Shown here in pieces: positions 10,379 to 54,455 of a stretch of 64,000 nucleotides of DNA. Positions within the stretch are counted from its first letter, which is position 1. Each line of letters starts with the position of its first letter. The notes under the pieces are model-generated. The model saw only the letters and a program-made list of their open reading frames with translations, searched no databases and was not told where the DNA came from. Origin of the DNA: Bdellovibrio sp. ZAP7 (GTDB taxonomy: Bacteria > Bdellovibrionota_B > Oligoflexia > Oligoflexales > RGVZ01); assembly GCA_945900755.1 (NCBI GenBank), contig CAMDKS010000013.1, positions 662 through 64,661 of the forward strand, given 5' to 3'. The translations under genes and the position numbers were made by a program.

Positions 10379-10580
10379 AGCTAGGCCTCAAAAGCAGGAC
10401 TCTCATAAGTAAGAAACCCTATCCTACCATGGAACACAAATTTTTGAGTTATAAAGTAGACGTTTTAGTGCCTTAGCGTCTGTCGATTTTCTAGGTGGAT
10501 AACTTGTGTGGTTTTTTAGCCATAGGCACATGGGTAACCCTTTATTAAAATTGTATTTTTTGAGTATTGATAATTTATCC

Positions 10581-10608
10581 TCAAGTTTCAATCGTCAAAT
10601 GCCGATAG
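10581..10608 (+). promoter_or_regulatory. Sigma28 (FliA)-type promoter of the trypsin gene
   Basis: TCAAG-N15-GCCGATAG, 30 bp upstream of ATG 10639. Confidence 0.55.
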
Positions 10609-10638
10609 GGGGGGAGATTTTTGGAGGAACTTAATTAT

Positions 10639-11922
10639 ATGAAACAGCATAGCCAATATCGTTCTAGGATTTGGGTAATCCAAACAGCAATAGTCATATC
10701 ATTTGTCGGGTTCGTGGGGTGCCGTGGAGCGAAACCGGATGCTGTTAGTCGTACTAAAATAGATGATGGCGCTTTTATTGATAAGGAGTCAGCCAATAAA
10801 GTTGACGGCGTCTTCTATACGATGACGACGTCGATCGGAGCAAACTCTGGCGGAGCTTGCACGGGTACAGCGGTAAGTACAAATACAGCTATGACGGCGG
10901 CCCACTGTGTCTACGACTCCGGCCAACGCCTTGATGCAAATCATGGACTTTCCGGAAAACAATTTTGCATAAATAATTCAATTTACCAAAAGATTTGCTC
11001 AACTAATATTTTTGTAAATCCTGGATTCCCTGCCAACTCGCAAGACGCGGGTGGTGGACACGACACAGCATTTGTCGTCTTTCCTGAAGGAACATTTAAG
11101 ACTTATTTTGAAATGGCATCATCGGCTCCAGCGATTGGTGATCAAGTCTTACTGATTGGCTACAGTGAGGATCAGCTGACCGAACAGGGGCGGGGGTCAA
11201 AGCGATTTGGTTATACTAAAATAAAGACGTTTGATAATGACGCACAAGGCGACATCATTACCTCGAGTACAGGAAGTTTTAACGGAGTTGCAGTCTCTCC
11301 TGGTGATTCGGGTGGGCCGTTGTTTAATGGCTGTAAAATTACTGGTGTTGCATCAAGAATGGCTGAGAGTGGAAGTGGTAAGTCTAGCATTCACACAAAT
11401 TTAACGCATGCTGTGACCCAAGAGTTTTTAAAAACGACAGCAGCCAAAGTCGGAGGCTATATTTGCGGTGTGTCTGGGATGGACGCAGTGCATTGCCCAA
11501 GCCATGCGAAATTTGAATTAGATCAATCTAAGTGGGAAGATCAAAAAGAAGTTCCTTGCGCAGTGGCAGGTGGAAGTGGATCTAATCCAAATCCAAATCC
11601 AAATCCAAATCCAAATCCAAATCCAAATCCAAATCCAGACCTAAATCCAATTCCGAATCCAATTCCTAGCATTGGTGAGTTATTTGCAGCGATCACCGGT
11701 GATGTCGCATTTGAAGTCGAGATCGCGCCAAAAGGCGATTGGACAAATCTAAAAGTTTGTCTTGGCGGTACAGTAGACATTGCAAAATCTTGTAGTCAAG
11801 TACCAACGGCAACTAAAAACGGTGAACGCTATAAGGTTAACGTGGGTCCCATCGCCAATTCATTCTTTATGCATATTAAATCAGATAAGAGTGAAAAGAC
11901 GTTGAAGTTCACCAAGAAATAG
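10639..11922 (+). CDS. Trypsin-like (S1) serine protease, putative lipoprotein with (NP)n linker and C-terminal domain
   Basis: CTG..TAAHC, HDTA and GDSGGPL triad motifs; lipobox-like FVGC; GGAGG RBS before ATG 10639. Confidence 0.85.
   Translation: MKQHSQYRSRIWVIQTAIVISFVGFVGCRGAKPDAVSRTKIDDGAFIDKESANKVDGVFYTMTTSIGANSGGACTGTAVSTNTAMTAAHCVYDSGQRLDANHGLSGKQFCINNSIYQKICSTNIFVNPGFPANSQDAGGGHDTAFVVFPEGTFKTYFEMASSAPAIGDQVLLIGYSEDQLTEQGRGSKRFGYTKIKTFDNDAQGDIITSSTGSFNGVAVSPGDSGGPLFNGCKITGVASRMAESGSGKSSIHTNLTHAVTQEFLKTTAAKVGGYICGVSGMDAVHCPSHAKFELDQSKWEDQKEVPCAVAGGSGSNPNPNPNPNPNPNPNPNPDLNPIPNPIPSIGELFAAITGDVAFEVEIAPKGDWTNLKVCLGGTVDIAKSCSQVPTATKNGERYKVNVGPIANSFFMHIKSDKSEKTLKFTKK
11584..11637 (+). repeat. 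(AATCCA)9 coding tandem repeat encoding (Asn-Pro)9
   Basis: Nine identical hexamers followed by degenerate DLNPIPNPIP units. Confidence 0.95.
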
Positions 11923-11964
11923 GATTATGTGTTGAACCAAAACTTACTTGATTCCAGCATGTTA

Positions 11965-12036
11965 AATCTAGGTAAGCACAGCTCGTCCAGGACTTCCCAT
12001 TACATGATATCCACAGTCGACGTGTAAAATTTCGCC
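11965..12036. repeat. 72-bp direct repeat, distal copy (duplicate of the fabI 3' end; att-like)
   Basis: AATCTAGGTAAGCACAGCTC...GTAAAATTTCGCC is identical to 12742-12813. Confidence 0.97.
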
Positions 12037-12108
12037 CAGGTGCGAACCCAGACATTCGGGAAATTGGTCGGCCAATGATGGCCGCATCTATTTCCCCCTC
12101 CCTTCCTG

Positions 12109-12137
12109 TTGTCAATGAGAGTTGAATGGAGTATACT
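12109..12137 (+). promoter_or_regulatory. Sigma70 promoter upstream of hicAB
   Basis: TTGTCA-N17-TATACT, followed by the inverted repeat CATCTA-N7-TAGATG at 12154-12172. Confidence 0.55.
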
Positions 12138-12261
12138 GGAGTGCGAGCTTTAACATCTATAGGTATTAGATGGTTGCATACAACACCGAGAAAATATTAA
12201 CGCTGAGGGGGGCTTATGTCAGAACCAAAATGGTTCCTACTGCTAATGAGAGTCCATAAAA

Positions 12262-12459
12262 TTGAAGATTAAAGATATTTTGACTTTAGTCGAAGCGGAT
12301 GGTTGGTATCTAGTCCACACCAAAGGCAGCCATCGTCAATTTAAACATACTTCGAAGGCCGGACGAGTCACTATTGCAGGTAAGCCCAGTGATGATCTGC
12401 CGCCAGGAACATTGAATAGTATTTTGAAGCAAGCGGCCTTAAAACAAGCAAAGAGGTGA
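12262..12459 (+). CDS. hicA: HicA mRNA interferase toxin
   Basis: 65 aa; DGWYLVHTKGSHRQFKH...GRVTIAG....DLPPGTLNSILKQA with the catalytic GSH motif. Confidence 0.92.
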   Translation: MKIKDILTLVEADGWYLVHTKGSHRQFKHTSKAGRVTIAGKPSDDLPPGTLNSILKQAALKQAKR

Positions 12460-12463
12460 AGCT

Positions 12464-12691
12464 GTGTTTAGATTCTTAATCGTTATTGAAAAAGCAAAAA
12501 ATAATTATGCGGCGTATAGCCCCGATTTACCGGGTTGTGTCGCCACAGGCAAAACTCGCGAAGAAGTTGAAAAGAACATGTATGAAGCAATTCAGCTACA
12601 TATCGTTGGCATGAAGGAAGACGGACTGGCGATTCCAAGATCTGAATCATTCGCAGAGTTTTTTGCGATTCCCGAAGTAGTAAATGGGTAG
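12464..12691 (+). CDS. hicB: HicB antitoxin (short form without a DNA-binding domain)
   Basis: YAAYSPDLPGCVATGKTREE..NMYEAIQLHI..MKEDG..IP; 4 bp after hicA. Confidence 0.92.
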   Translation: MFRFLIVIEKAKNNYAAYSPDLPGCVATGKTREEVEKNMYEAIQLHIVGMKEDGLAIPRSESFAEFFAIPEVVNG

Positions 12692-12741
12692 TTTTAGGCT
12701 TCTGAAATACTTACTTTAAGACTGAGTCAGACACATCGATG

Positions 12742-12813
12742 AATCTAGGTAAGCACAGCTCGTCCAGGACTTCCCATTACATGATATCCACAGTCGACGT
12801 GTAAAATTTCGCC
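12742..12813. repeat. 72-bp direct repeat, copy within the fabI 3' end
   Basis: Covers the last 22 codons, the TAG stop and 3 further nt of fabI; identical to 11965-12036. Confidence 0.97.
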
Positions 12814-13548
12814 TGTGGTGGCAGAGGCCATATCGCTAAGAAGAAATCCCGCCGAGCGACCAACTTCCTCATTAGTAATGTTTCGAGCCATTGGCGCCAT
12901 AGCTGAATAAAGATGCAGCATATCGCCTGCACCCACGGCGGAAGATGCGAGAGTTTTGACCGGTCCTGCACTAACAGCATTGACACGAATGCCTTTTGGG
13001 CCGAGATCCCAAGCCAAATACTTGGTTGCAGATTCCAAGGCCGCTTTACAGACTCCCATTAAATTATAGCCGCCTACCACACGTTCACCGCCGTAGTAGG
13101 TCATAGTGGTCATCGCTCCGCCTTTGTCCATCAACGGAACGGCAGCTCGTGCACAGGCGATAAAGCTGTAAACACTAATATCCATGGCAGTGAGAAAACC
13201 CGCTCGGCTGGCATCGATCGTGGCGCAGCGAATATCATCTAAGGGCGCAAACGCAATCGAGTGCACCAGAAAATCGATGGATCCAAACTGTTCGCGAACC
13301 TCGCCGAAAAATCGGGCGATATCCGCATCATTGGCCACGTCACATGGACGCACAAAAGTAATTCCAAGTGGCTCGGCGACACGCATGACGCGGCGAAGCA
13401 TTTTTGCGGGGCCGCCCTCTTTATCGGGCAGGTGACTGAAACCGATTTCAGCACCCTCCTTTTTCAAAAACTCTGCAACACCGGCAGCCAGCGAATGCTC
13501 GTTGGCAACGCCCATTATGATGCCTTTTTTTCCAGTAAAAAGTCCCAT
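12745..13548 (-). CDS. fabI: Enoyl-ACP reductase
   Basis: GKKGIIMGVAN.HSLA, DFLVHSIAFA, YNLMGVCKAALE, GIRVNAVSAGPVKTLA, TGEILHVDCG. Confidence 0.95.
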   Translation of the reverse strand: MGLFTGKKGIIMGVANEHSLAAGVAEFLKKEGAEIGFSHLPDKEGGPAKMLRRVMRVAEPLGITFVRPCDVANDADIARFFGEVREQFGSIDFLVHSIAFAPLDDIRCATIDASRAGFLTAMDISVYSFIACARAAVPLMDKGGAMTTMTYYGGERVVGGYNLMGVCKAALESATKYLAWDLGPKGIRVNAVSAGPVKTLASSAVGAGDMLHLYSAMAPMARNITNEEVGRSAGFLLSDMASATTGEILHVDCGYHVMGSPGRAVLT

Positions 13549-13649
13549 GCGTATGATTCTCCCGTGCCTAATTTAGCTGGCAGCGCTCCAATTTTTCTTA
13601 TCTGCCTGCAAACTAGCGGAGGATGAGCGATAGGACAACCAAAAAAGTA

Positions 13650-16649
13650 TTAAAATAACGCATCGAAGCCAAAAGACCAATATCCCTGCCACGACCGAGT
13701 CAAAACTTGACCAGCCCCGAGTCCGACATTGAAGCGAACTCCTTTATTATCCATGAAAAGATCTAGAGTGTAGCCCTGTGCAGCAATCAAATCTTGTTGG
13801 AGTGGCATTTCATTGCCTCGCCACGCTGTACCATAATTTAGGAAACCACTGATATTAAGTTGATCAATATAGACAAGACTCTTGAACTTGTCGATGTCCT
13901 GTATCAGGGGATGAGTGGCTAGGAGTCGTGCACGAGCTTGATTTTCACCAAAGACTGGGGTGAATAGTCCTTGATCAGGCGTTACAGCAAAGCTTGCTTG
14001 ATTAAAGCCCCCACCAGATCCAGGAATTAATGTTTTAAGGGGTGAATACATTTCTTGAAGGTCTCGACGTTTAGGCCCACGAGTTCTGCTTCCATCTAAT
14101 CCTAATTCTAGGCGACCACTACCGATCTTTGAGCCGGTCGTGACATTTGCTCGCAGAATGTCGTAGTGAAAATCATGATTAATACCTGGAGCTGCGACGG
14201 CGCCTGCCACAGAGGTTGATGCGAAAAGTATTCCACCATTATTAACACTGGCACTCACGCCAACAAAGGTTTCGTTCAGATGCCCCACACGGCGTGCGGG
14301 GCCAATATATTTTTTCAACACAGCCGATTTTAGGCCCCAATTCCATTCCACGGCCAGACGATTCCAAAACTGAACATAGCTACCGTCAAGGTGTGATCCT
14401 TTTTCCTCTAAGTATTTAGAAAGAATAAATCCCGATGGCTGCTCGCGGTACCGTCCGTTGTATGTTTGTGCGCGGTAACCTGAGAGTGACCAAGTTGGCT
14501 TGAAGCGGTTGGAGGTCAAGGTGATTTCTTGATAGGGAAATCGACTGACTGTGCCTAAAAGAAATGTAGCTCGTACGGTTTCATTTTGCATTTCGTCCAT
14601 GAGAGGAACAGTGATTAGACCAATTTGCGGTCCCAGCGGATCATCGCTTGCGATCCACGGGAATGCGAAAATTGGCCGGCCTCGCCAGGCCGCGGGCCTT
14701 GCTTTCGGCGTTGTCACGTCAGCGCTCACGTCAGCGCTTACGTCCGTGGGCACGGGCGCTGCTCCTATAGCCTGGGTGTCCAGAACAGGACTAGCATCGC
14801 GTTTGCCTATCTCCGTTTTATTTTCTGGGCCCGGAGCCATACTCCAAATGCTTGACGACAGAACCGCTTCCGCAAACGTCAGTGGTTTAGGAGATAGCAT
14901 CGCCGCCAACAATGGGGACGTCCGTTCAGAAAGCTGGTGGCACGGCATCACAGGAAATTTAGCAGCATCTAAGCCCCGCGCCACATATCCATCTACGGTA
15001 AAAAGCACGACATAGGGCAAACCTTCGGCGGAGCTAACAATTCTGGCAGGATAATCAGAAATTTCAATCATACCAACGCATGCGTTGTTTCCATCAAGCT
15101 TTAAAATATGACGCCTTGAGCGGTCAGCGGTCAGCATCCACGTCCCGGAATTGGTTGTGGCCATACTGATCGGCCGCCCCCCTACCGGTGATTTAAGAGT
15201 TTTAATCGTATAGGCCGACAAATCGACCTCTAAGATTTCGTTCACGTCACCTTTCAGTGTTTCGGTGTCACGAGCGATCCAAAGAGACGTTGTCGTTTTT
15301 GACGAATCATCATGACGCTCCCCAATCATTCGCAGGTGAGCCGGCATGGTGCCTGTGAGCAGGCAGGTTACATTCGCTTTCTTAAAATTCTGGCGAGGTG
15401 CGCGACAAAGTTTCGAGGATTGAATATAGGTCTCAAGCCACCAGACATCCGTGGTTGTGAGCCAAGGGCCGTCGATCCACTGGCTTTCCCGGGGTAGCCA
15501 CATGACGGGCTGCTTCGTCTCACCCGAAGCTTGTAATCCAATTCGGTAGCTACGCAGATTGGCTTTAGGAAAATAGGAGTTGGTCCAGGCTGTAGCGTTC
15601 GTCGATGTTGCCACTTGCACACTTGCCGAGTCTGCGGGAGGTTTTGTTTTCGAGAGTTTCGAATTCTCAAATTGCCACGACCACGCACTGCTCGTGACCT
15701 CTTTTTCCTCCACTTTACCGGATAGCAGTGGCGCGGTACTAACACCCTTCCAGTAGGTGGTTGCGTCCATTTTGTATTGGGTGTAGAGCTCCTTGCCTGA
15801 TTTTCCAGTCATGGATTTTAAAGCACTATCCATTGGCAAAAAACTGTTGAACGGCATGACCGCCCACGGCCAATACCAAGGCATTGAATCTGAGCGAAAT
15901 GTTTTCAACATCTCTGGAAGTTTCGACGCATCGTGAGTGCGCAAAATCCAGCTCACAAACGAGCCACTCGTTGCATAGCCCCGAAAATTAAATGGGCCGC
16001 TGTTATAAAGACTATGGAGGCGGTCCCAGGTCGGCCAATTATTCGTCAAGGCTTGGTACCTCTCCACACCGGCTTGCTCATCAGAACCAATAGAAACACT
16101 GACAGCCTCCGCCAGCCCCTCAAGAAACCAAGCCTCCATCCACGGCAAATGCAATATTGAACCGGCGGGTCCAAACAAATTATCCAGTTGCCGATACATC
16201 GTGGAGTGCGTGTATTCATGCCATGCGAGGTCGCGACCGCCCTGCCCTAACGTTTGCAATTCAATGGAGTCGGTCACAAAATTTGCAAAAGATGCGTTGT
16301 CACTCATCGCCGACATATTCACGACCAAAGGAGATGATCGCGATACGCCAAACCACCTCTCGACATTTGGCCTCGCCGCTTCTAAGGATCTCATGGCAAG
16401 CTTCGCATCATCTGGGGCCCGGCGATCGTGATACAAAGTGAAATTTTTTGACGACAATTCATCAAATTTAACATCCCCTTGATTGTAGCCGTAGCCAATC
16501 GGGAGCGCTGACGCTCTAGGAATACTGAGCACGTCAATGAGCAGCGAGAAACCAACGGCACCCCACATATAGATCGTAACGATACGAGCAGCCCCGCTTC
16601 GACCCCTAAAGGTTTCCAATGTCATTAAATACTTAAGGGGATTTCGCAT
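13650..16649 (-). CDS. Outer-membrane protein with an N-terminal gluzincin peptidase-like domain, a probable beta-propeller and a C-terminal beta-barrel
   Basis: HEYTH plus WFLEGLAE Zn motifs; signal-like N-terminus; amphipathic strands ending in YWSFGFDALF (terminal Phe). Confidence 0.6.
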   Translation of the reverse strand: MRNPLKYLMTLETFRGRSGAARIVTIYMWGAVGFSLLIDVLSIPRASALPIGYGYNQGDVKFDELSSKNFTLYHDRRAPDDAKLAMRSLEAARPNVERWFGVSRSSPLVVNMSAMSDNASFANFVTDSIELQTLGQGGRDLAWHEYTHSTMYRQLDNLFGPAGSILHLPWMEAWFLEGLAEAVSVSIGSDEQAGVERYQALTNNWPTWDRLHSLYNSGPFNFRGYATSGSFVSWILRTHDASKLPEMLKTFRSDSMPWYWPWAVMPFNSFLPMDSALKSMTGKSGKELYTQYKMDATTYWKGVSTAPLLSGKVEEKEVTSSAWSWQFENSKLSKTKPPADSASVQVATSTNATAWTNSYFPKANLRSYRIGLQASGETKQPVMWLPRESQWIDGPWLTTTDVWWLETYIQSSKLCRAPRQNFKKANVTCLLTGTMPAHLRMIGERHDDSSKTTTSLWIARDTETLKGDVNEILEVDLSAYTIKTLKSPVGGRPISMATTNSGTWMLTADRSRRHILKLDGNNACVGMIEISDYPARIVSSAEGLPYVVLFTVDGYVARGLDAAKFPVMPCHQLSERTSPLLAAMLSPKPLTFAEAVLSSSIWSMAPGPENKTEIGKRDASPVLDTQAIGAAPVPTDVSADVSADVTTPKARPAAWRGRPIFAFPWIASDDPLGPQIGLITVPLMDEMQNETVRATFLLGTVSRFPYQEITLTSNRFKPTWSLSGYRAQTYNGRYREQPSGFILSKYLEEKGSHLDGSYVQFWNRLAVEWNWGLKSAVLKKYIGPARRVGHLNETFVGVSASVNNGGILFASTSVAGAVAAPGINHDFHYDILRANVTTGSKIGSGRLELGLDGSRTRGPKRRDLQEMYSPLKTLIPGSGGGFNQASFAVTPDQGLFTPVFGENQARARLLATHPLIQDIDKFKSLVYIDQLNISGFLNYGTAWRGNEMPLQQDLIAAQGYTLDLFMDNKGVRFNVGLGAGQVLTRSWQGYWSFGFDALF

Positions 16650-16657
16650 AGTCCGGC

Positions 16658-18223
16658 TTAATTTCGTTTCAACAATTTTGAAACAACCTCTAAAAGCTCT
16701 GCGGAGACAAACGGCTTTGAAAGGTAGGCATCAGGATTAAAATTTTGCTTAATGGTGTCCTCACTCATCTCCTCGAGAGCGCCAGAAATGAGAATTAGTC
16801 CAGTCTTACCGTTAGCAACTCTAATATCATGGAGCAGTTCTAGGCCATTTTTTTCCGGCATTCTCATATCGGAAATAACCACATCAGGATCCCACGTCTG
16901 AAATAGACGCAGACCCTCTGCGCCGTCAGCTGCCGTACGAATTTCGAAGGGCAAACCACGGAAAACATCGACAATCATGTCGCGAATATCCTCGTCATCA
17001 TCGACCACCAGAATCTTCGAATGCCCTTTGATGGTTTCTCTGAGGGACTCGACTCGAAGAATCGACGCATTAGGAAGGGTCACCCCAAAGGTGGCTCCAA
17101 TCCCACGCATATCGCCTCCTCCGAGCACAAAAATTTCTCCATTGTGCAACCTGACCAATTGCGAGACGATCGATAGGCCAAGCCCGACACCAGAGGCAGC
17201 ACCTTGCTGGTTGTCGAGTTGAGTATATTTGTCAAAAACACTTTTCAATTGTCCCTTAGGAATACCTGGACCCTCGTCCATGATTTCAATGCGAAGGGCT
17301 TTGTTATGACGTTTAAAATCGTCTATCAATTTCGTCGTGATCGTGACTTTTGTTCCTGACGGAGAAACCTTGAATGCGTTGGTCACGAGATTATCGATGA
17401 TTTGGCCAAATTTCAAGCGATCCACTTGAATTCCGACCGAGCCGCACCAGTTTGTGATGAGACCTACGCCATATTTTTGCGTGCCTATCATGGCCAAATT
17501 AAGTGTTAACTCGTTGAGTACAGAGTGAATTTCAACAATTTCAAGATTGATATTCATTCCGTCATTTATTTTGGAAAAATGCAGAAGATCTTCGGACATG
17601 GCGACACAGCGAGCGATATTTCTTTTGATGGTGGCAATAAAATTCAAATGTGATTCAGGCAGATTTTTGTTCTGCAATTGCAGCATGTCGCAACAAGCCC
17701 CGATCGCCCCCAAAGGAGATCTTATGTCGTGGAGTAAGATTCCCACAAAGTCATCGCGATTTTTAATTTTTTCTTTTGCTTGAACCAATTCTTCAAATTT
17801 CGATCGATAGGCCTGAGTCATGGCTGACAGTGAATTGAGGACCCACAGGATGCCGACGGGTTTGTCATTTTCAGTAATTGGAATAAACCGGAAAGCATGT
17901 TGAATAAAAATTTGACAGGCCTCGTGGTGAGAAGCCGTTGACGGCAGACTTATCGGACAGGGAGTCATAATATCGTGAGCTTTTAAACTTACAGATTTTT
18001 TTACCGCAGCAAGCAATTCTACACTTCCCACACTTCCTACGAGCAGGCCAGCCTCATCGACGACGAGCATGACTTCCGCTTTCCTTAACCTCTCGTCTTG
18101 AAGAAGTTCCTCGAGGGACGTGTCCTGCGGAATGACTCCATAAATTGGCGACATCAGGGTCGACACTTTTTGAGAATCATGCGTGGCCTGCTGGGGCGTT
18201 GAATTGGGAATCGTTGAAGTCAT
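16658..18223 (-). CDS. Hybrid sensor histidine kinase with an N-terminal CBS pair and a C-terminal receiver
   Basis: CBS-like VVDEAGLLVGSV / DIMTP / PITENDKPVGIL; H-box LHDIRSPL; NAFK, DEGPGI, GVGLGL; receiver VVDDD..SDMRMP..KPF. Start codon uncertain. Confidence 0.88.
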   Translation of the reverse strand: MTSTIPNSTPQQATHDSQKVSTLMSPIYGVIPQDTSLEELLQDERLRKAEVMLVVDEAGLLVGSVGSVELLAAVKKSVSLKAHDIMTPCPISLPSTASHHEACQIFIQHAFRFIPITENDKPVGILWVLNSLSAMTQAYRSKFEELVQAKEKIKNRDDFVGILLHDIRSPLGAIGACCDMLQLQNKNLPESHLNFIATIKRNIARCVAMSEDLLHFSKINDGMNINLEIVEIHSVLNELTLNLAMIGTQKYGVGLITNWCGSVGIQVDRLKFGQIIDNLVTNAFKVSPSGTKVTITTKLIDDFKRHNKALRIEIMDEGPGIPKGQLKSVFDKYTQLDNQQGAASGVGLGLSIVSQLVRLHNGEIFVLGGGDMRGIGATFGVTLPNASILRVESLRETIKGHSKILVVDDDEDIRDMIVDVFRGLPFEIRTAADGAEGLRLFQTWDPDVVISDMRMPEKNGLELLHDIRVANGKTGLILISGALEEMSEDTIKQNFNPDAYLSKPFVSAELLEVVSKLLKRN

Positions 18224-18462
18224 TTCGAAGTTTCCTAGGGGACCATGGATTAACAGCACTACCACACTCGATACTCTGAATTGAGCCTGCACAAGTACAG
18301 TATTCTTCTTTAATAATATCATGTTACCAAGAAATACGTCCAACTTGGTCGGCACTTATTTTTAGGTAAAATGGCAAAGTCCTCTGAAATCTATGGATAT
18401 TTGCTGGTTTTTAGGCGAAAAGTCATCGACGTTGCAGCTCACTTAAATGGGATCAGTCCTCA

Positions 18463-19509
18463 GTGCAAAACCTTGGTATTAAATTTCCATACATGATCGC
18501 GCCTATGGTGGGGATTAGTCACGTGGCCTTCAGGGAATTAGTGCGCTCGTATACTCCTTCGCCTATTGAGGCTCTTCGATTTACCGAGATGCTGTCGACG
18601 CGAAAACTTCCTAGCGAAAAATTGGATCTGACCCCACAGCTACGCGTATCAGAGGGGGAAAGATTTTTCATTCCGCAGCTCCTAGGAAATGAAGAAAAAT
18701 TTATCGGGCCAAGCGTCAAAAAGCTCTTACCCTTATCTCCGTGGGGTTTTGACATTAACATGGGGTGCCCACAGACCCATATTCTTCGTCACAATTGGGG
18801 CGTGCGACTCATGGGGGATTCAGCTTATGCGGCTGAGGTGGTCAGAATGGTCAAGCGCCATACGAACATCCCTGTAAGTGTTAAGCTCCGCGGCGGCGCC
18901 GATAAGGATATTGATAAAAATTATTTGCTCGATTTTACGGCCGCGCTTGAAGATGCGGGAGTCGATTGGCTGACGATTCACGCCCGGCCACGCGCCGCAA
19001 AACATGAAGGCCCCGCCAACTGGGACATAGTCGGTGAGGTGGCACAGGCGAGAAAGATTCCGGTGATCGCAAATGGCGACATTCAAACGTCGGCCGATGC
19101 CATTAAAATTGTAAGAGACTACAACTGCGCTGGTGCGATGATTGCCAAGGCCGCGACGGCGCGTCCTTGGATTTTTTGGCAAATCGCAGAGGACCTTGGA
19201 CTCAATGGTGCCCCCCCAGGTCGCGAAGGTGAGCGCGCCCCACGAACCCCCGAAGAAGAAGGCCGCGAGTTTCACCGTTCTTTTCTTACCTTAATCGACC
19301 TCGTCGAACAATATTTCGGAACGGGTGACGGCGTCGAAGAATACGGCATGCAAAAATTGCGTTTTTACGCCGCCCTCGCAGCCAAGTGGTTTTTGTTTGG
19401 CCACAGCTTTTGGCGCGTAACCACCAAGGCCAAAACGTTTCAACAAATGAGAGAAGGCGTCGCCCACTATTCCGAGACTTATACACAGGAAATGTACGCC
19501 CGCATTTAA
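18463..19509 (+). CDS. tRNA-dihydrouridine synthase family protein
   Basis: APMVG, FTEM, DINMGCP, PVSVKLR, IHAR, PVIANGDI. Confidence 0.9.
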   Translation: MQNLGIKFPYMIAPMVGISHVAFRELVRSYTPSPIEALRFTEMLSTRKLPSEKLDLTPQLRVSEGERFFIPQLLGNEEKFIGPSVKKLLPLSPWGFDINMGCPQTHILRHNWGVRLMGDSAYAAEVVRMVKRHTNIPVSVKLRGGADKDIDKNYLLDFTAALEDAGVDWLTIHARPRAAKHEGPANWDIVGEVAQARKIPVIANGDIQTSADAIKIVRDYNCAGAMIAKAATARPWIFWQIAEDLGLNGAPPGREGERAPRTPEEEGREFHRSFLTLIDLVEQYFGTGDGVEEYGMQKLRFYAALAAKWFLFGHSFWRVTTKAKTFQQMREGVAHYSETYTQEMYARI

Positions 19510-19553
19510 TGGCTCCAGCGGCCTCTGGCCGTTCTCAGGGCTACCTGGGTCGG

Positions 19554-21137
19554 TTACCGCACCTCAAAGCCGAACATCATTCCCGTACCAAGATGCTCAC
19601 TGATGTGACAGTGCCCCATCCACCGGCCTGGATTCTGGTTGTCAAGAACCACGTCCACTGTCTCGCCTGCACGAACTAACACCGTGTCTTCCCAGCCCAC
19701 GGTCTCCTCAGGCAAACCATTGCGAGCCAACACAATAAATCTCTGGCCGTGGAAGTGCATGGGGTGCTGCATCGGGTGATGCTTGCCGTCGTTAATAATT
19801 CTGATTTTGACCGGTTTATTTTTTGTGAACAGCCAATTAATCGCCATGTTTTCTTTACCGGTCGCAGGATCTATAACACGCCACGTCACATCTTTATCCG
19901 ACATGGCTGCGTTCATCTCGGACATTGAATCCTCCCACTCTATGCCCTCAGCGCCTGCGCCCTGACCCATCATGTGTTCGGCATGTTGGCCACGAAGTGT
20001 CGCATCTATTTTCATAGTGAAATCAGGCTTCGCCGCCGCCAACGACAACAACGGTTGAAACATATCACTGAGCTCCTTGCGTTCCTGCAGGCGTTCAAAG
20101 TTGGCCCCTAGCTTTGCTCGCTCAAGGGTCGTGAATTTTGGATTTTTTGCCACGAAAATCTTACCTAATACTTGTTTCTTCTTTGGACCAATATTTTCAA
20201 GGGTGACTGTTTTTGGATTCAAAAAAAACACATCCACTACCGCTCGTTCACTCGGGGCCAAAATCAATTCATCGATCATACGATCTTTTGCGTACGGTCC
20301 GGAATCACCGCCAATAAGTTTCATTTTAGCACCCGAGAACGTAAGCTTAAACGGGCGTGCATTTGCGGTATTTGTCATCCAATAACGGACTACAGAACCA
20401 AGTTTTGCTGTCGAGCTCCAATTGGATTTATTATTTACCAGATTAAAATTTCCATATCGGCCCATCAATGCATACGATAGTTTTCCACTTTTGAACTCTG
20501 GCAGCTGGCCTTCTCCCACCAACAAATCATCGACTACGATCACTTCATCGCGATCAACAGCAGGCATTTTCGAAAGGTCAGTATCCATGACCCAGTAGTT
20601 ACCCTGAAGCCCCATTTCCTGCCCATACTCATCACTCATGTGTGGGTGATACCAAAAAAGTCCCGCGTCAGGAAATTTTAGATCATAGGTATGAGATTCG
20701 TTATTCAAGATCGGATCTTGACCAATGCCGACGACGCCGTCATTTTTATCGTCCACACGCAACCCATGGGAATGCAAGCTTGTGGGCTCCCCCGTTTGAT
20801 TTGTAAGTTTCAATTTTATTTTGGTTCCCTGTTTCGCAACGATCATGGGGCCGGGAATCATGCCATTATACGCAAGCCTTGTGAGCCATTTCCCGTCAAC
20901 TTTATCACGTACAAAACCCGCAATTAATTCAATCGAATCACCGTCCGAAACTTTAATGATTTTAGTGGCCGTCACCGGCTTAAGATGAACGGACTCGGGA
21001 ATGGTTCTGGCCTCAGCCCCTTGGCCCACTAAGCTGGCGCCTAGGATGGTAGCAAGACTCAAAACCATGAAAACCAGCCGTCCCAAGGCTCCCACGGACT
21101 TCCGGTCGATACAAATATACATAAATAAATTCAACAC
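19554..21137 (-). CDS. Multicopper oxidase (CueO/laccase-like)
   Basis: Cu motifs HSHG, WYHPH, HPMHFHG, HCHISEH..GM. The true start may be downstream (e.g. 21068). Confidence 0.92.
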   Translation of the reverse strand: MLNLFMYICIDRKSVGALGRLVFMVLSLATILGASLVGQGAEARTIPESVHLKPVTATKIIKVSDGDSIELIAGFVRDKVDGKWLTRLAYNGMIPGPMIVAKQGTKIKLKLTNQTGEPTSLHSHGLRVDDKNDGVVGIGQDPILNNESHTYDLKFPDAGLFWYHPHMSDEYGQEMGLQGNYWVMDTDLSKMPAVDRDEVIVVDDLLVGEGQLPEFKSGKLSYALMGRYGNFNLVNNKSNWSSTAKLGSVVRYWMTNTANARPFKLTFSGAKMKLIGGDSGPYAKDRMIDELILAPSERAVVDVFFLNPKTVTLENIGPKKKQVLGKIFVAKNPKFTTLERAKLGANFERLQERKELSDMFQPLLSLAAAKPDFTMKIDATLRGQHAEHMMGQGAGAEGIEWEDSMSEMNAAMSDKDVTWRVIDPATGKENMAINWLFTKNKPVKIRIINDGKHHPMQHPMHFHGQRFIVLARNGLPEETVGWEDTVLVRAGETVDVVLDNQNPGRWMGHCHISEHLGTGMMFGFEVR

Positions 21138-21294
21138 ATTACCCCTAGGACTAAAAAATATTCAATGCCCCAAAACCTTCATGCTCGTATTTTATCATGA
21201 CTTGGTGTATAGTTTCTATAGAATCCCGATGTTTTTAAACTCGGTTTTATTAATAAGTTCATCTCCCCAAGACCACGACATGATGAGGTATTCC

Positions 21295-21729
21295 TTGCCA
21301 AATATTGGACCTACAATTGGAGAACCTGCTGCCAACGGACTCTTTGGTTGGCATGTCACATCAAACACGATGAACGTCCGTGTCGTGCCTGAGTATTTGC
21401 CCAAGCGATCAAGTCCTGAGCAAGATTTTCACGCTTTTTCTTATCATGTCACGATTACTAATTTAGGCCATGAGTCCGTGCAGTTGCTACGACGCCAATG
21501 GACGATTACAGATGGGAATGGAGTGATCGACATCGTTGAGGGCGAAGGAGTGGTTGGTATCCAGCCCAGGATTAAGCCTGGCGAATCATACGAATATCAT
21601 AGCGGCTGCCCGCTTCGAACGACTACGGGCTACATGAGTGGTTGGTATTTTTTTGAAACTGAAAAAGGCGCAGCCTTCCGATGCAGAATTCCTGCCATTT
21701 TTTTGCGACACGATAAAGTTCGTCATTGA
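21295..21729 (+). CDS. apaG: ApaG protein
   Basis: FSYHVTITN..VQLLRRQWTITDG..VEGEGVVGIQP.I.PGESYEYHSGCPL.T..G.M.G. TTG start chosen after GAGG. Confidence 0.9.
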   Translation: MPNIGPTIGEPAANGLFGWHVTSNTMNVRVVPEYLPKRSSPEQDFHAFSYHVTITNLGHESVQLLRRQWTITDGNGVIDIVEGEGVVGIQPRIKPGESYEYHSGCPLRTTTGYMSGWYFFETEKGAAFRCRIPAIFLRHDKVRH

Positions 21730-34548: not shown

Positions 34549-36099
34549 TTACTTCTTGCCATTAGACGGGCCTGCTGAAGCATTGCAGCGGTCGTCCAAG
34601 TTATAGACATAGTAGCCGAGCTCATCTTCCCAATACTCACCTTGGAACGGCCAGTATTCGATCTGCTGGTCAACCTTTAGCGGCTGTAAACCCCCGATAA
34701 AAACTTTACGGTCATTCGCTTGAGTAACGTTGAGGCTTCTCCTAATCGTATCCACCTGCCCCTCAAATCTTTCAGCTTGAATTCCTTTAGTCTGTTGAAC
34801 TAGGTCACGCATATAAGCCACAGACGAAGCGGCCTGCTCAAATAACTGCACACCAGAGTCTACTTTAGCGACCGCTTTCTTTTTCGCTAAAAAACCTTTT
34901 AAATCATCAATCAGCCCGGTAGAGACCCATTTTCCACCCATTCCGGACAACCGCGCAATTTCTGCATCTGAGTAACGAACGGCCCGATAAGCCTCTTTAT
35001 AGGCATCAGAACGGCTGAGGGAGTCCAATATAGCCCAAGCACTACGATAACTGGAGAGCGAGCCGTTTCGGTAGTCGTAAACTAGCTTAAATAGCTCTGA
35101 TTTTTTGGATTTGTATTCGGTCAGCACTGCTGAAATGTCTTTGAATACAGGCTTGTTCTTGTCTCGAAAACTTTCCAAACTAGACTGCACTTTGTCAAAT
35201 CTGCAAAGCCTTAGATACGTGATCGCTTCGAGGAGATAGGACTCTGGGAAAAAACGATTTTCGAAAAATGGGGAGTGAAGGGTATGGATATTACCTAATA
35301 CGTTATTATGCTTGGCCATCATAAAAAATGCCCAGGCGGACTCGAATATGGCTTCGAGCCAGTTATCAGATTCTCTTGGGATTTGCGCGTAGTATTTCAA
35401 AGACTCCGCAAAATTCTTTGTTTCGTAATGAACTCGCGCAATATTCAAAGCACTTTGTTCACGGACCCAAGCATCAGCGCCCGCCGCTTCACGAGTCGAC
35501 TCAAAGTAACTAATGGCACGACTATGCGCCCCAGCTCGATTTGCAATGACGCCCAAGTGAAACTGAGCTTTACTATAATATGAGCTAGCGGCAGGCACTC
35601 GCTTGAACATGTCCGAAGATTTTTCATATTTTTCCTTTATGAAATTTTCTTCGCCCAAATAGTAGAAATAGAACCCACGGGCCGCAGCAGGAATAGATTC
35701 CGGCGCAAGATTTTCGCCTTTAACTAGCTGCGAAATGTGCGATTTCCCCAAGGCGACCGTGTTGTTGATCTGCCCCAATTCTTCGAGGCTCCTGCGGAAA
35801 TATGGATTTACCGCCGTCGGCCCCCGCCTGACAATTTGCGAAAAATATTTAGAAGACGAGTAGTAAAAACCCAAGGATTGAAGACTTTTTGCCAAGCCCC
35901 ATTCTGAAAACACCTTTTCCTGTGCAGACCTAGGAGACGAATAGGACTGAAAATACTCTGCGGCGGCACCTGCAAAGTCTCGGCCTGCGGTTAATTTCTG
36001 ACCTGCTTCATAACCAGCAAAGCTATTCGTGGATAGCATAGAAATGCTAATCCCCGCGGCCAAAATCCATGCCGACCTTGAACTGGTCAAGCCCCTCAT
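34549..36099 (-). CDS. gltC: TPR protein, GltC-like
   Basis: IPRESDNWLEAIFESAWAFF, LGNIHTLHSPFF..FPESYLL and terminal EYWPFQGEYWEDELGYY...C are characteristic of this family. Confidence 0.8.
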   Translation of the reverse strand: MRGLTSSRSAWILAAGISISMLSTNSFAGYEAGQKLTAGRDFAGAAAEYFQSYSSPRSAQEKVFSEWGLAKSLQSLGFYYSSSKYFSQIVRRGPTAVNPYFRRSLEELGQINNTVALGKSHISQLVKGENLAPESIPAAARGFYFYYLGEENFIKEKYEKSSDMFKRVPAASSYYSKAQFHLGVIANRAGAHSRAISYFESTREAAGADAWVREQSALNIARVHYETKNFAESLKYYAQIPRESDNWLEAIFESAWAFFMMAKHNNVLGNIHTLHSPFFENRFFPESYLLEAITYLRLCRFDKVQSSLESFRDKNKPVFKDISAVLTEYKSKKSELFKLVYDYRNGSLSSYRSAWAILDSLSRSDAYKEAYRAVRYSDAEIARLSGMGGKWVSTGLIDDLKGFLAKKKAVAKVDSGVQLFEQAASSVAYMRDLVQQTKGIQAERFEGQVDTIRRSLNVTQANDRKVFIGGLQPLKVDQQIEYWPFQGEYWEDELGYYVYNLDDRCNASAGPSNGKK

Positions 36100-51141: not shown

Positions 51142-52149
51142 TTAGAACGTAATTTCCCCAAGCTCTTCCACAACTTCGCTCTGGGCCACTACTTTTTTCA
51201 ATTCGGAAAGGAACACTCTTTTTGAAGCCGTCATATTGCGCCGCGCACCCTCTATGAATGCTATTTGCACCCATACCGGCATCCGTGCGAGTGACATAGC
51301 CATTCCTGCCTGATTTTTAGCAACAAGTGTTTCAAGCAACGACAAGGCTAGGTCACTGAGGCCTGGATTTCTTGAAATAGAATAATAGAAGATGGTCTCA
51401 ATTAGTGCCTGATTTTGATTTGGCGGATACTTCATCATATGCTGCAAGGCGATCGTCGCTGCAAAGAGATTTATCGAAGAAATCGTCATCTGCCGCAATT
51501 CTTCAGGCGGACAAAGGGAAAGATATTCCAGGAGATCGTCACTGGCCTTTTCTGGATTTAACGCCGCCATGGCCAGGGCAAAGGATTCATGATTTGTAGA
51601 CAAGAGGCCTTGGCGAACTACGGAGTAGGCCGACGCCATTTTGTTCGTTTGAACCGCGATCGCCATCGCAGGAATTAATATGGCCTCCTCGTCATCATCA
51701 AATAAAGCACGATTTATCTCTGCATTCATCTCAGTACGCATGATTTTTCCAGGCAACGCTGTGGCCATTTGCCAGCCGAGTTGACGAACAAGAGCCCGCT
51801 CCGACGCTACCATCTTCTTAAACATTCCCCCTTGAGGGGTTACTGGGCCAGAAAGGTAGAGCATCATCGCATTTGTAATCTGCGCATTTGAATAGTCTGT
51901 CATTCCTGCCAATATATTTTTATTCAGGATTTTTTCGGCCTCTGGCCATTGCTTCCGAACTGTTACAAGCTTTCGAACCTTCGTCCCGGTAACGCCGCCA
52001 AAATCAATGCCGGCCGTTAAGGCTTCTTCCAGGGGCATTGACTGGGATATTTCAGGCGCCAATTTCTCTGACTTACTCCCTTGGGCTGTCGGGGTAACAC
52101 AGGCTGATGTGGTCATTAAAAAACCTATTATGACGATACGTGCGATCAT
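51142..52149 (-). CDS. Hypothetical all-alpha lipoprotein
   Basis: TSAC lipobox; Leu/Ala/Met-rich helical composition. Confidence 0.6.
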   Translation of the reverse strand: MIARIVIIGFLMTTSACVTPTAQGSKSEKLAPEISQSMPLEEALTAGIDFGGVTGTKVRKLVTVRKQWPEAEKILNKNILAGMTDYSNAQITNAMMLYLSGPVTPQGGMFKKMVASERALVRQLGWQMATALPGKIMRTEMNAEINRALFDDDEEAILIPAMAIAVQTNKMASAYSVVRQGLLSTNHESFALAMAALNPEKASDDLLEYLSLCPPEELRQMTISSINLFAATIALQHMMKYPPNQNQALIETIFYYSISRNPGLSDLALSLLETLVAKNQAGMAMSLARMPVWVQIAFIEGARRNMTASKRVFLSELKKVVAQSEVVEELGEITF

Positions 52150-52620: not shown

Positions 52621-54455
52621 TAGGCACCACGCCGGCGAAGGCGGCAAAGAAGCAGCGGAAGCAGAAGTGCGCAAACTACGGCCCACCTTGAATTTGAGGG
52701 CTCCAGCCTGTCGATTCTTCCGCTCGCTCCTATGGCGCCACACCCGGCCGTAACCCGGTCAAGCGGCTGTCCCGTCGATACTTTATTGGAATTTAAAATC
52801 ATGGCATTGACATCTAGTAACCCGCTACCCAGCAGAGGCCGCCTCGCTGTCTCGTTCGAGATCTTTGGATAATAAAAGGTCACATTAACTTTGCCACCCT
52901 CGGTATCTGCACCATAAAGTAGGGCAGCATTCGCCGTGTTCAAGATCCGGCTTCGAAGTTCTGCAAAACTCAAGTTCGGAGCCGCCGCAAGCAATAAGCC
53001 GGCAGAACCAGAGACGATTGGCGTAGCCATTGAAGTTCCGCTTTTGGGCCCGCTCGTACCTCCAGACAGCGTGGAAACTATGCCAACTCCGGGTGCAGCA
53101 ATGTCGACCCAAGAACCAAAATTACTAAACGGCGCTTTTCCAATATAATCCTGATCATTAGTGCGCCCCACTGCCGAGACTGCGATGGCACTAGCTAACG
53201 CTGCTGGGTAAGCTCGAATCATTGAATCCTCATTTGAGGCCGCACCGATGACAAGCGTACCTGACCCGACATGCTTCAGCACATCCACCAGAATAGCAAC
53301 ACTGCGAGACCTAGAGTATTTGCCAAGCGATGCATTGGCAATTCGAACCGCACTGGTGCCATTTCTACGAAACTTCGTAAGGTATTTAAATGCGCGAATT
53401 TGACTCTCGTCATTGATTTGACCTGTGCTCCCGTCAACAACCTTTAAGACCATGATTTTACACATCGGGCAAACGCCTCCCACCTGACTAGACGAATCCG
53501 GCTTTGCCGCAATTAACCCAGCAACATGGGTGCCATGATTGCAGACATCATCGGGCTTTTCACCGCAACTAGTCCCTGGCCCTGACGCGTTAATAGGCCA
53601 TACGTCTCCATTTCCAAGAGCCCCCTTCGCAATTATAGTGGTATTGCATCCATGCAAATCGTTGCCACACCCACCGCTTCCAACCGCTGGGTTAGTCCAA
53701 ATACTGTCAATAAGCTGGGGGTGTTCATAATCAACCCCAGAATCTAAGACGGCAATGATGGGGGCACTGCTCACGACATCTGCTTCTATGAAATTTTTAG
53801 GGTCGGCCAATGTCGCAAATGCCTCTGGAAGTTTGATCACTTTATGCCAATCTTGAAGTGCAGCATAGGTTGTGGCAAACTTCGCCAACTCACCTTCATA
53901 CGGATCGGACATTTCATTTGGCTCAGCATACCAAATGCGGCCATCTCGCTCCCACTCTCCGAGCATCTCAGCCGCAGACTCGTCGCTCTCGAAATCCACT
54001 TTCGCCATAACGCCTGCTGGCGGATTCTCGGAAAATCCTTCCGCAAAACCTGAGGCCAACTCCAATAGAGCCTCGGGTGCAGAAAAAGATGGCGCCCATT
54101 CGGTTTTTTTAATCCAGCTCAAATCAACGGCTGATAATACGTCCATGCTTGAGATCCTGGGATCCGCCAAATACGCATCACTCAATGTTGCATAGTGATG
54201 AGCGTATTCGCTTGCAAAGGAAGAAAAAAACAAACTCTCATTACTATTGGTTTCACGAAACATAACAATATAGCTATGCGGAACTCGATTGGCGGTCGCT
54301 CCAGGGACGGAATCTTCTCCCAAACGAACGACCGGCAAGGGCTTTTGGGCTTCTGACATAAATTCAGGCCCCATCCTGCCACAGGCAAGCAGTCCCGATC
54401 CGCCCAATATGAAAGCGAACACTAACAGGCCATTTTTTTTAATATCGTGATTCAT
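52620..54455 (-). CDS. Subtilisin-like S8 serine protease, lipoprotein with a C-terminal sorting-like anchor
   Basis: IAVLDSGVD, HGTHVAG, SGTSMATP triad; LLAC lipobox; C-terminal AGCG + hydrophobic helix + RLRRR. Confidence 0.92.
   Translation of the reverse strand: MNHDIKKNGLLVFAFILGGSGLLACGRMGPEFMSEAQKPLPVVRLGEDSVPGATANRVPHSYIVMFRETNSNESLFFSSFASEYAHHYATLSDAYLADPRISSMDVLSAVDLSWIKKTEWAPSFSAPEALLELASGFAEGFSENPPAGVMAKVDFESDESAAEMLGEWERDGRIWYAEPNEMSDPYEGELAKFATTYAALQDWHKVIKLPEAFATLADPKNFIEADVVSSAPIIAVLDSGVDYEHPQLIDSIWTNPAVGSGGCGNDLHGCNTTIIAKGALGNGDVWPINASGPGTSCGEKPDDVCNHGTHVAGLIAAKPDSSSQVGGVCPMCKIMVLKVVDGSTGQINDESQIRAFKYLTKFRRNGTSAVRIANASLGKYSRSRSVAILVDVLKHVGSGTLVIGAASNEDSMIRAYPAALASAIAVSAVGRTNDQDYIGKAPFSNFGSWVDIAAPGVGIVSTLSGGTSGPKSGTSMATPIVSGSAGLLLAAAPNLSFAELRSRILNTANAALLYGADTEGGKVNVTFYYPKISNETARRPLLGSGLLDVNAMILNSNKVSTGQPLDRVTAGCGAIGASGRIDRLEPSNSRWAVVCALLLPLLLCRLRRRGA

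Follow-up and report, generated by a model that had tools for sequence, protein, structure and literature searches.

Introduction

Among the recurrent modes of gene gain that involve no recombinase is insertion with long target duplication; its first description is said to be that of Nobusato in 2000, and its enzymology is unexplained. Here we analyze a small islet in Bdellovibrio sp. ZAP7 that holds only the toxin-antitoxin (TA) gene pair hicAB and lies between two copies of the 3' end of fabI, an essential gene. The islet is part of a stretch of 64,000 nucleotides (the window), which itself is part of one contig, here called C13 (CAMDKS010000013.1, positions 662 to 64,661), of a metagenome-assembled genome (MAG) of 2.9 Mb, the source assembly G000 (GCA_945900755.1). 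Plain positions refer to the window, C-numbers to contigs of this assembly, and G- and L-codes to other genomes and loci. On balance we read the islet as an integrase-free insertion with long target duplication that carries a TA cargo and has the end of an insertion sequence (IS) at one joint.

The class has been described for restriction-modification (R-M) units (Furuta 2010, PMC2853133). According to that report, the repeats, of 46 to about 420 bp and so all above 30 bp, do not recur elsewhere in the genome, and in some cases they share 2-15 bp with a gene's 3' end. The inserts come without a recombinase and without any other mobile element, and most cases were found in naturally competent species. 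The criteria also ask for an insert below 20 kb without a mobility gene, and for a related genome with a single target copy and no insert. The mechanism was left unexplained, and double-strand breakage was proposed. We found no paper on hicAB or another TA pair inserted with a long target duplication; the supplement of PMC2853133 may hold further cases.

A second system of comparison comes from Pseudomonas fluorescens SBW25, where an IS481-family copy is reported to have arisen precisely where the two copies of a 59,943-bp tandem duplication meet (mBio 2024, PMC11708052). Clusters of repetitive extragenic palindromic (REP) sequences lay at the endpoints of this Dup-IS-Dup structure, and there was no short target duplication of the normal kind.

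A hicAB islet between two copies of the fabI 3' end

A repeat search of the window revealed two direct copies of a 72-nt sequence that agree at every position (100% identity); they lie at 11965-12036 and 12742-12813, and their starts are 777 nt apart. When the whole assembly was searched, the 72-mer was found at these two places only. Copy 2 is made up of 3 nt, the stop codon TAG (minus strand, 12745-12747) and the last 22 codons of an open reading frame (ORF) of 267 aa. This ORF matches the Pfam family adh_short_C2, 'Enoyl-(ACP) reductase', with 3.5e-77, and its 12 best NCBIfam matches are all FabI models, the best with 2.6e-85 and 285.8 bits, which does not reach the strict cut-off of that model (452). 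Copy 1 is an orphan; the fabI frame upstream of it is closed by stops. An earlier note on this DNA had described a perfect 72-bp duplication of the last 22 codons, the stop and 3 nt of fabI at a distance of 777 bp, and every one of these numbers is correct. Two further points of it are supported as well: the duplication regenerates fabI, and, by the logic of the sequence, an exchange between the copies would take out 777 bp without harm to the gene. Copy 2 is the true 3' end of fabI. A 72-nt duplication lets an insertion land in the coding end of an essential gene without damage.

The copies enclose 705 bp, in which hicA and hicB are the only credible ORFs; neither the ORF list nor Pfam revealed a recombinase ORF in this islet. 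Read on the minus strand, the body of fabI is followed by the intact 72 nt, a 50-nt spacer, hicB and hicA (antisense) and an 80-nt leader. Then come about 48 nt from the left-end leader of an IS, 41 nt of its right subterminal sequence and 55 nt of its right terminal repeat. The orphan 72 nt and a further 42 nt lead to the stop of a convergent gene for a trypsin-like protease.

Measured against the criteria of Furuta (2010), the repeat is longer than 30 bp and unique in the genome, and the insert is shorter than 20 kb and free of mobility genes. The absence of any other mobile element does not apply here, since the IS3-like remnant at 12035-12181 lies within the insert. The fabI islet resembles the described class as a small addiction-type unit without a recombinase, between unique repeats of more than 30 bp that copy the target, and differs from it by having hicAB instead of R-M genes as cargo and an IS tip at one edge of the insert. 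What this case adds to the known class is, first, a TA pair (hicAB) as cargo downstream of an essential gene and, second, the tip of a mobile element at the joint, a feature that recurs with statistical support in G000.

HicA proteins are stable RNase toxins that are restrained by HicB. The arrangement is that of a HicAB type II module: both domains are present, the genes are adjacent, and hicA comes first with a gap of 4 nt. Compared with the nearest copy in the genome G010, 21 of the 30 differences in hicA and 20 of the 25 in hicB fall on third codon positions, and hicAB is therefore under purifying selection. G010 has two copies of hicAB, 87% and 80% identical and in unrelated places, and the homology is confined to 12263-12696. 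The locus departs from HicAB type II modules in two respects: the homology to the nearest copies covers the coding sequence only, and HicB is a short form, which matches profile positions 1-69 of 123 and so lacks a DNA-binding tail. A short HicB, of 72 aa each, is also found in the Waterburya and L074 cassettes described below. Together, the short HicB and the homology limited to coding sequence suggest that transcription of hicAB depends on the local context, and here it is possibly driven from the IS remnant. Loss of the islet through the 72-nt copies would restore the naive site and would at the same time free HicA, so that a clean deletion is predicted to be resisted.

The junctions were checked in Logan contigs (k=31) of three runs, X1-X3. 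Run X1, with 0.93 of the sampled words, probably represents the source sample itself rather than an independent one. Its contigs come to an end at 11994 and 12771, 30 nt inside each copy, and an exact repeat of 72 nt leads one to expect this. Depth is 11.5 in one outer branch and 13.7 in the other (sum 25.2), compared with 15.9 for fabI. Both branches are thus at single-copy depth, which fits two copies per genome better than two strains. Runs X2 and X3 do not cover hicAB, and X3 does not cover the protease gene, which is not evidence of absence. An exact 35-mer of the repeat gave 0 matches each in the metagenome contig and genome contig collections, and these searches thus yielded no independent copy of the locus.

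These data bear on the idea that the contig passes twice through a single 72-nt node and joins different molecules or strains. Such an artefact would be in line with three facts: the window comes from a MAG contig, the k=31 contigs end within both copies, so that neither is spanned by a contig, and on one side the path crosses a multi-copy IS. For the contig to hold them, however, all four junction sequences must exist in the reads, and the summed branch depth does not fit two strains that share one copy. In addition, the IS copy at fabI carries private variants next to the junction. Furthermore, the repeats at the sister loci in the same genome are imperfect (88-99% identity); a graph cannot invent these, and they are therefore not graph artefacts. 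Taken together, we regard a false join as very improbable.

An IS3-like terminal repeat at the inner edge of the orphan copy

The stretch 12035-12181, which follows the orphan copy, is a dispersed repeat with 29 further matches on 16 other contigs of G000. A full copy of the corresponding IS, about 1.65 kb long, is found at C31:1401-3047. It has inverted ends and encodes OrfA (177 aa) and OrfB (280 aa), the latter with an rve domain (Pfam 1.5e-12). Against the NCBI model NF033516 (IS3 transposase) OrfA corresponds to positions 19-124 and OrfB to positions 210-368, both below the cut-off. The full copy thus has the two-ORF rve transposase and the terminal inverted repeats of the IS3 family. The remnant at fabI contains neither the left repeat nor the two transposase ORFs; its left-end leader segment corresponds to sequence that in the full copy separates the left repeat from orfA. 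Shortened derivatives of the IS that resemble miniature inverted-repeat transposable elements (MITEs) are present on C11, C48 and C2. There are seven rve matches in the assembly, so that a transposase is available in trans. No target duplication is readable at the copies of this IS3-like element.

The orphan copy is directly adjoined by the IS tip (CAGGTGCG..., from 12037), and the two letters CC may be counted with one or the other. To within 0-2 nt, the inner, gene-internal edge of the orphan is therefore also the position of the conserved tip of this terminal repeat, whose block CAG(A/G)TGCG is kept in about 17 copies. A decayed IS next to a flawless 72-nt repeat implies that the block was already old at the time it moved.

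Two explanations from the mobile-element repertoire were rejected. A plain transposon or MITE insertion does not agree with the structure, which has one terminal repeat only, a unique and unrelated sequence at the other end (12692-12741) and a duplication of 72 nt. A reading of the palindromic repeat as an integron attC site was dropped in view of the full IS copy with its inverted ends and rve transposase.

The content of the islet had been described in the earlier note as hicAB with a sigma70 promoter and no integrase. The gene content stands: hicAB are the only genes and an integrase is absent. The stretch 12035-12181, however, is not plain promoter DNA and represents the IS3-like remnant. 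The proposed promoter is a consensus match within this remnant, and the number of promoter-like sites in the region (4) does not exceed that in shuffled sequences (2.9 +/- 1.7).

As in the Dup-IS-Dup structure of SBW25, an IS with an rve-type transposase stands exactly between two direct copies of host DNA. There the IS is complete and new and the duplication unstable and 60 kb long, whereas at fabI a decayed solo end together with cargo separates copies of 72 nt.

The fabI 3' end had also been proposed as an attachment (att) site. In this case an element with a site-specific recombinase would have entered at the 3' end of fabI with its own copy of the last 72 or more nt, and the recombinase and most of the island would later have been deleted. 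An IS-mediated adjacent deletion, for example, could have trimmed the attR-side copy to 72 nt, and it would account for the IS tip at the edge. The likeness to integrative islands and their integrase-less derivatives is clear in that the direct repeats regenerate the 3' end of the target gene and a TA pair serves as stabilizing cargo. Moreover, G000 does contain a classical case: an island on C18 between 48-nt copies of a tRNA 3' half (1946-1993 and 11433-11480), with the integrase at C18:10782-11282; a third such 48-mer lies 23 kb away (34868-34915). A second islet at a tRNA end, C19:51827/53261, has no integrase. At fabI, by contrast, no recombinase is found in cis and none is evident in trans, as the C18 integrase is the single PF00589 match in the assembly (serine recombinases were not searched for), and the orphan is bounded by an IS terminal repeat tip at the place where an att arm would be. 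The site is not recurrent in relatives (see below), the perfect repeat fits badly with the time needed for the loss of an island, and about ten similar islets without a recombinase stand at unrelated unique sites of this one genome. We therefore consider the remnant of an integrative island unlikely.

The C19 islet just mentioned spans 1.4 kb between 50-nt copies of the tRNA 3' end (51827-51876 and 53261-53310) and contains a gene with DUF805 and SHOCT domains and one with TM2 and SHOCT domains.

Similar islets in the same genome

Self-comparison of G000 revealed numerous local direct repeats; 27 non-tandem pairs were picked from them by hand, a selection that is not exhaustive. In 18 of the 27 (the fabI pair and 17 more) the repeat has exactly two copies in the genome; these repeats measure 42-205 nt and enclose 0.3-8.8 kb. 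The stop of a flanking gene or a tRNA end falls within the repeat or at its edge in 9-10 of the 18 pairs. The cargo is mostly TA-like or defence-like: DUF433 with a PIN-like partner, HTH_3 antitoxin-like proteins, BrnA and AbiEii (twice). Further cargo comprises AAA_14/DUF4143 ATPases (two), a STAND NTPase and Schlafen/AlbA_2 proteins (two).

Dispersed repeats, defined by at least 5 matches in the genome, are frequent at the edges of these pairs. They were found in 11 of 36 inner 80-nt edge windows and in 2 of 36 outer ones (Fisher p 0.012), compared with 22 of 2000 random windows (1.1%); the excess at the inner edges has a binomial p of about 1e-13. This enrichment far above chance offers a concrete, testable clue to an unexplained process. 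In at least 7 pairs the end of the element lies no more than about 5 nt from the repeat edge or overlaps it slightly. When repeats were mapped more strictly, which gave 212 intervals or 0.64% of the genome, an element was found within 10 nt of the inner edge in 5 of the 18 pairs and at the outer edge in one. The elements belong to the IS3-like repeat, two REP-like families that start with TGTAGT, a palindromic MITE-like family and an IS fragment. That such repeat elements alone insert with long duplications was rejected for G000, since only 1 of the 212 intervals has an exact flanking duplication of at least 14 nt.

The enrichment of hairpin-forming elements at inner edges could also be expected if the orphan, and not the cassette, was the inserted item. 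In this alternative, fabI and the protease gene would already have been separated by hicAB and the IS remnant when a break occurred at the IS tip; its repair would have brought in a copy of 72 nt that lie 705 bp upstream, either by template switching or by a tandem duplication that was later trimmed by deletion. One sister case must have arisen in this way. On C43, an 88-nt segment from within an ABC1-kinase gene is repeated as an orphan (20056-20143 and 20481-20568) beside a REP-like element just past the gene, and the last 292 nt of the gene, which lie between the copies, are native, with orthologues in 6 relatives that align over residues ~6-535 of 535. An IS at the center of a duplication has moreover been seen to arise in the laboratory (PMC11708052), and one species of the Waterburya-type clade (see below) has the gene and hicAB without an orphan. 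For fabI, however, it would be chance that the outer end of the template falls 3 nt past the stop. The 9-10 of 18 repeats at gene ends are what insertion under selection predicts and not what random patches predict. In three pairs (C19: 57204/58983, C53, and C2: 16245/16705) the repeat element stands beside the intact gene copy, which is impossible for a patch, and in the relative seen in run X3 the homology ends at the stop codon as well. For the fabI locus we thus take a copied patch as the main rival reading, but as a rather unlikely one.

At the C43 duplication, the end of the element and the start of the repeat have about 9 of 10 letters in common. Synteny around the C43 islet was not kept in 5 relatives.

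hicAB-only inserts in other genomes

Among 80 loci that encode relatives of the HicB of the window, 5 have a direct repeat on both sides, and 3 are clean hicAB-only inserts flanked by 151-239-nt copies of the end region of a neighboring gene. Two of them are found in genomes titled Waterburya (L090:2602-3397 and L105:2602-3387), where the locus is 92% alike and hicAB stands between 151-161-nt copies of 94-97% identity. Here the repeated sequence is the terminal ~157 nt of a sodium:solute symporter (SSF) gene together with 4 nt. The third case, L074:2476-3475 from an uncultured bacterium, has hicAB between 239-nt copies (98.7% identity) of the upstream region and the first ~72 codons of a MutS2-like gene, and is of the same kind as the fabI islet but at the start of a gene.

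In the Waterburya-type clade (L132 and L135 among the loci) three alleles can be compared: the gene only, the gene with hicAB but without an orphan, and the gene with hicAB and an orphan. Four species have the symporter without hicAB and one has the symporter and hicAB without an orphan. Since the same architecture is common to two genomes that are 92% alike, such islets can persist, which fits the idea that HicA penalizes their loss.

The fabI flank in related strains

The fabI loci of relatives were compared in order to see what lies behind the gene. In 12 of the 13 loci (L011-L023) the gene downstream of fabI encodes a short-chain dehydrogenase/reductase (SDR), usually followed by a gene for an acyl carrier protein (ACP)-like protein, as judged from ORF listings without Pfam. 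This SDR/ACP cluster is absent from the G000 assembly. The earlier note had suggested a search of related genomes for elements at the 3' end of fabI, and none of the 13 loci has hicAB, another element or a protease gene behind fabI.

In run X3 a contig from a closer relative covers 12746-13400 with 10 differences (fabI ~98.5% identity), and before 12746 it is unlike either flank of the window. Thus, in a near relative too, homology ends at the fabI stop. What follows fabI immediately therefore varies among close strains.

The spacers that adjoin the two 72-nt copies, 11923-11964 and 12692-12741, have one 11-nt block in common (AA.ACTTACTT); 133 of 5000 shuffles reach its score, so that it is too weak to be used. 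The fabI flank of the X3 relative also starts with a similar hexamer. The likeness may be a trace of an older common flank, or chance.

Compared with L050 (G002:C1:21000-40900), the region 12745-21300 (G000:C13:13406-21965) is rearranged: the block to the left of fabI in G002 lies to its right, and inverted, in G000. About eight genes, including those for the SDR and the ACP-like protein next to fabI in 12 relatives, are missing from the G000 assembly.

A possible route of insertion

How the joints were made can be inferred from this anatomy. We propose that the inserted item was a ready-made block of 705 bp, with hicB, hicA, the leader and an IS3-like end that was already decayed and without transposase, and that it would have entered the strain-variable spot just behind fabI, at a naive junction between fabI and the protease gene. 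The outer joint would lie 3 nt past the fabI stop and the inner joint 72 nt upstream, inside fabI, and the latter would be formed by the terminal repeat of the IS with its very tip. The intervening 72 nt would then be present on either side, as an intact fabI end and as an orphan beside the protease gene.

Such a product could arise if donor DNA, with fabI followed by hicAB and the IS end, enters a cell with the naive junction and pairs through fabI by homologous recombination. The far end, at the solitary terminal repeat, would be joined at a point 72 nt before the homology ceases, and the duplication would take its length from this point. The join may be made by a resident transposase that acts in trans on the solitary repeat, or it may be illegitimate, with 2 nt of common letters. 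Resolution of the loop formed would yield the order fabI-72-cargo-72. The outer joint would mark the position where the cargo-bearing and naive alleles cease to be alike, and selection on an essential gene would allow only a position past the stop. A staggered break filled in on both sides would give the same product. The process would be one of homology-facilitated illegitimate recombination, which is known from work in Acinetobacter and pneumococcus. Our literature search for this type of recombination together with duplication returned nothing relevant.

Several observations weigh against an insertion of this kind. At the fabI flank itself an empty site was not found: the letters downstream of fabI in X3 match neither flank of the window, the G010 assembly has no fabI in which an empty site could be read, and the other relatives are only ~73% alike and have the SDR gene at this flank. 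The 3' flank of fabI is also a synteny breakpoint relative to G002, and several events may be superimposed there. Linkage across each 72-nt copy rests on the assembly, as no listed k=31 contig bridges a whole copy. With regard to the IS, a decayed remnant beside perfect 72 nt means that the element was not brought in at that time by transposition of its own. Among 7 IS tips that were scored (of 24 matches), the one at fabI alone abuts a long local duplicate, and for one other tip a 25-nt match lies close by. In the hicAB cases from other phyla, a leader of 46 nt and a trailer of 14 nt are too short to accommodate a repeat element, and an IS end is thus not required for such insertion. Finally, the 18 pairs in G000 include some that are not insertions: one lies within a single ORF, one in a glycosyltransferase locus, and one (C19:51827/53261) duplicates a tRNA end; the C43 20056/20481 case arose as a copied patch and not by insertion.

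Our preference for an integrase-free insertion with long target duplication takes these points into account. A wider and more tentative idea is that resident element ends, i.e., IS terminal repeats and REP-type hairpins, may serve as the active end in integrase-free gene gain, with one joint made at the tip and the other by homology, and the distance between them as the duplication. If true, this would provide a mechanism for an insertion mode that has been unexplained since 2000, and it would explain how TA and defence cassettes are slotted behind core and even essential genes without harm. G000, with about ten such islets, would then be a natural test bed.

Coordinates and further observations

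The coordinates of the features at the fabI locus and of further islets in G000 are collected in Table 1.

Table 1. Features of the fabI-hicAB locus (window positions) and further islets in the source assembly (contig positions).
Feature	Coordinates	Strand	Basis or remark
Orphan copy of fabI 3' end (last 22 codons, stop, 3 nt)	11965..12036	-	Identical to 12742-12813; within no long ORF
Terminal inverted repeat, right end, with internal hairpin, of decayed IS3-like element	12035..12091	-	Matches on 16 other contigs and right end of C31:1401-3047
Subterminal right-end segment, same IS	12092..12132	-	Aligned to C31:2960-3047 and C48:65-165
Promoter-like site toward hicA, inside IS remnant	12109..12137	+	TTGTCA-17-TATACT, 10/12 consensus
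Left-end leader segment, same IS	12133..12181	-	92-96% identity to C39, C31, C2, C45, C51
Leader before hicA, 80 nt, unique	12182..12261	+	Matches nothing else in genome; unrelated to G010 hicAB leaders
hicA, 65 aa, TTG start	12262..12459	+	Pfam HicA_toxin 6.5e-21
hicB short form, 75 aa, GTG start	12464..12691	+	Pfam HicB_lk_antitox 9.2e-12, profile positions 1-69 of 123
Spacer, hicB stop to copy 2, 50 nt	12692..12741	.	Homology to G010 hicAB ends at 12696
Copy 2, functional fabI 3' end and 3 nt	12742..12813	-	ORF map, repeat search
fabI, 267 aa	12745..13548	-	Pfam and NCBIfam
Further islets, none with a recombinase, list 1	C43:17906-18792, C6:60949-62288, C2:94439-94976, C11:57722-59854, C10:63788-65256
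Further islets, none with a recombinase, list 2	C53:12229-15421, C19:57204-59188, C8:71718-76036, C33:19599-24121, C12:72699-73467

At three other islets of G000, the sequence of G010 is 66-85% alike or unmatched, and no empty site is readable there. The REP-like families that start with TGTAGT have 27-38 copies each, e.g., at C59:7698-7743, C14:67618-73752 and C45:17573-17608. An ORF of 217 aa at C5:14925-15578 has an N-terminus that we take to resemble REP-associated tyrosine transposases. Homologues of ComEC and DprA are encoded in G000; the same families match in 10-11 of 14 control genomes and therefore say little about natural competence.

The gene for the trypsin-like protease next to the orphan copy, together with 100 nt upstream (10524-11942), is 94% identical to G010, and both flanks differ. 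Judged from this pattern, the protease gene looks recently exchanged. Within it, a run of AATCCA hexamers (11572-11672) codes for an (Asn-Pro)n linker, and the k=31 contigs break there.

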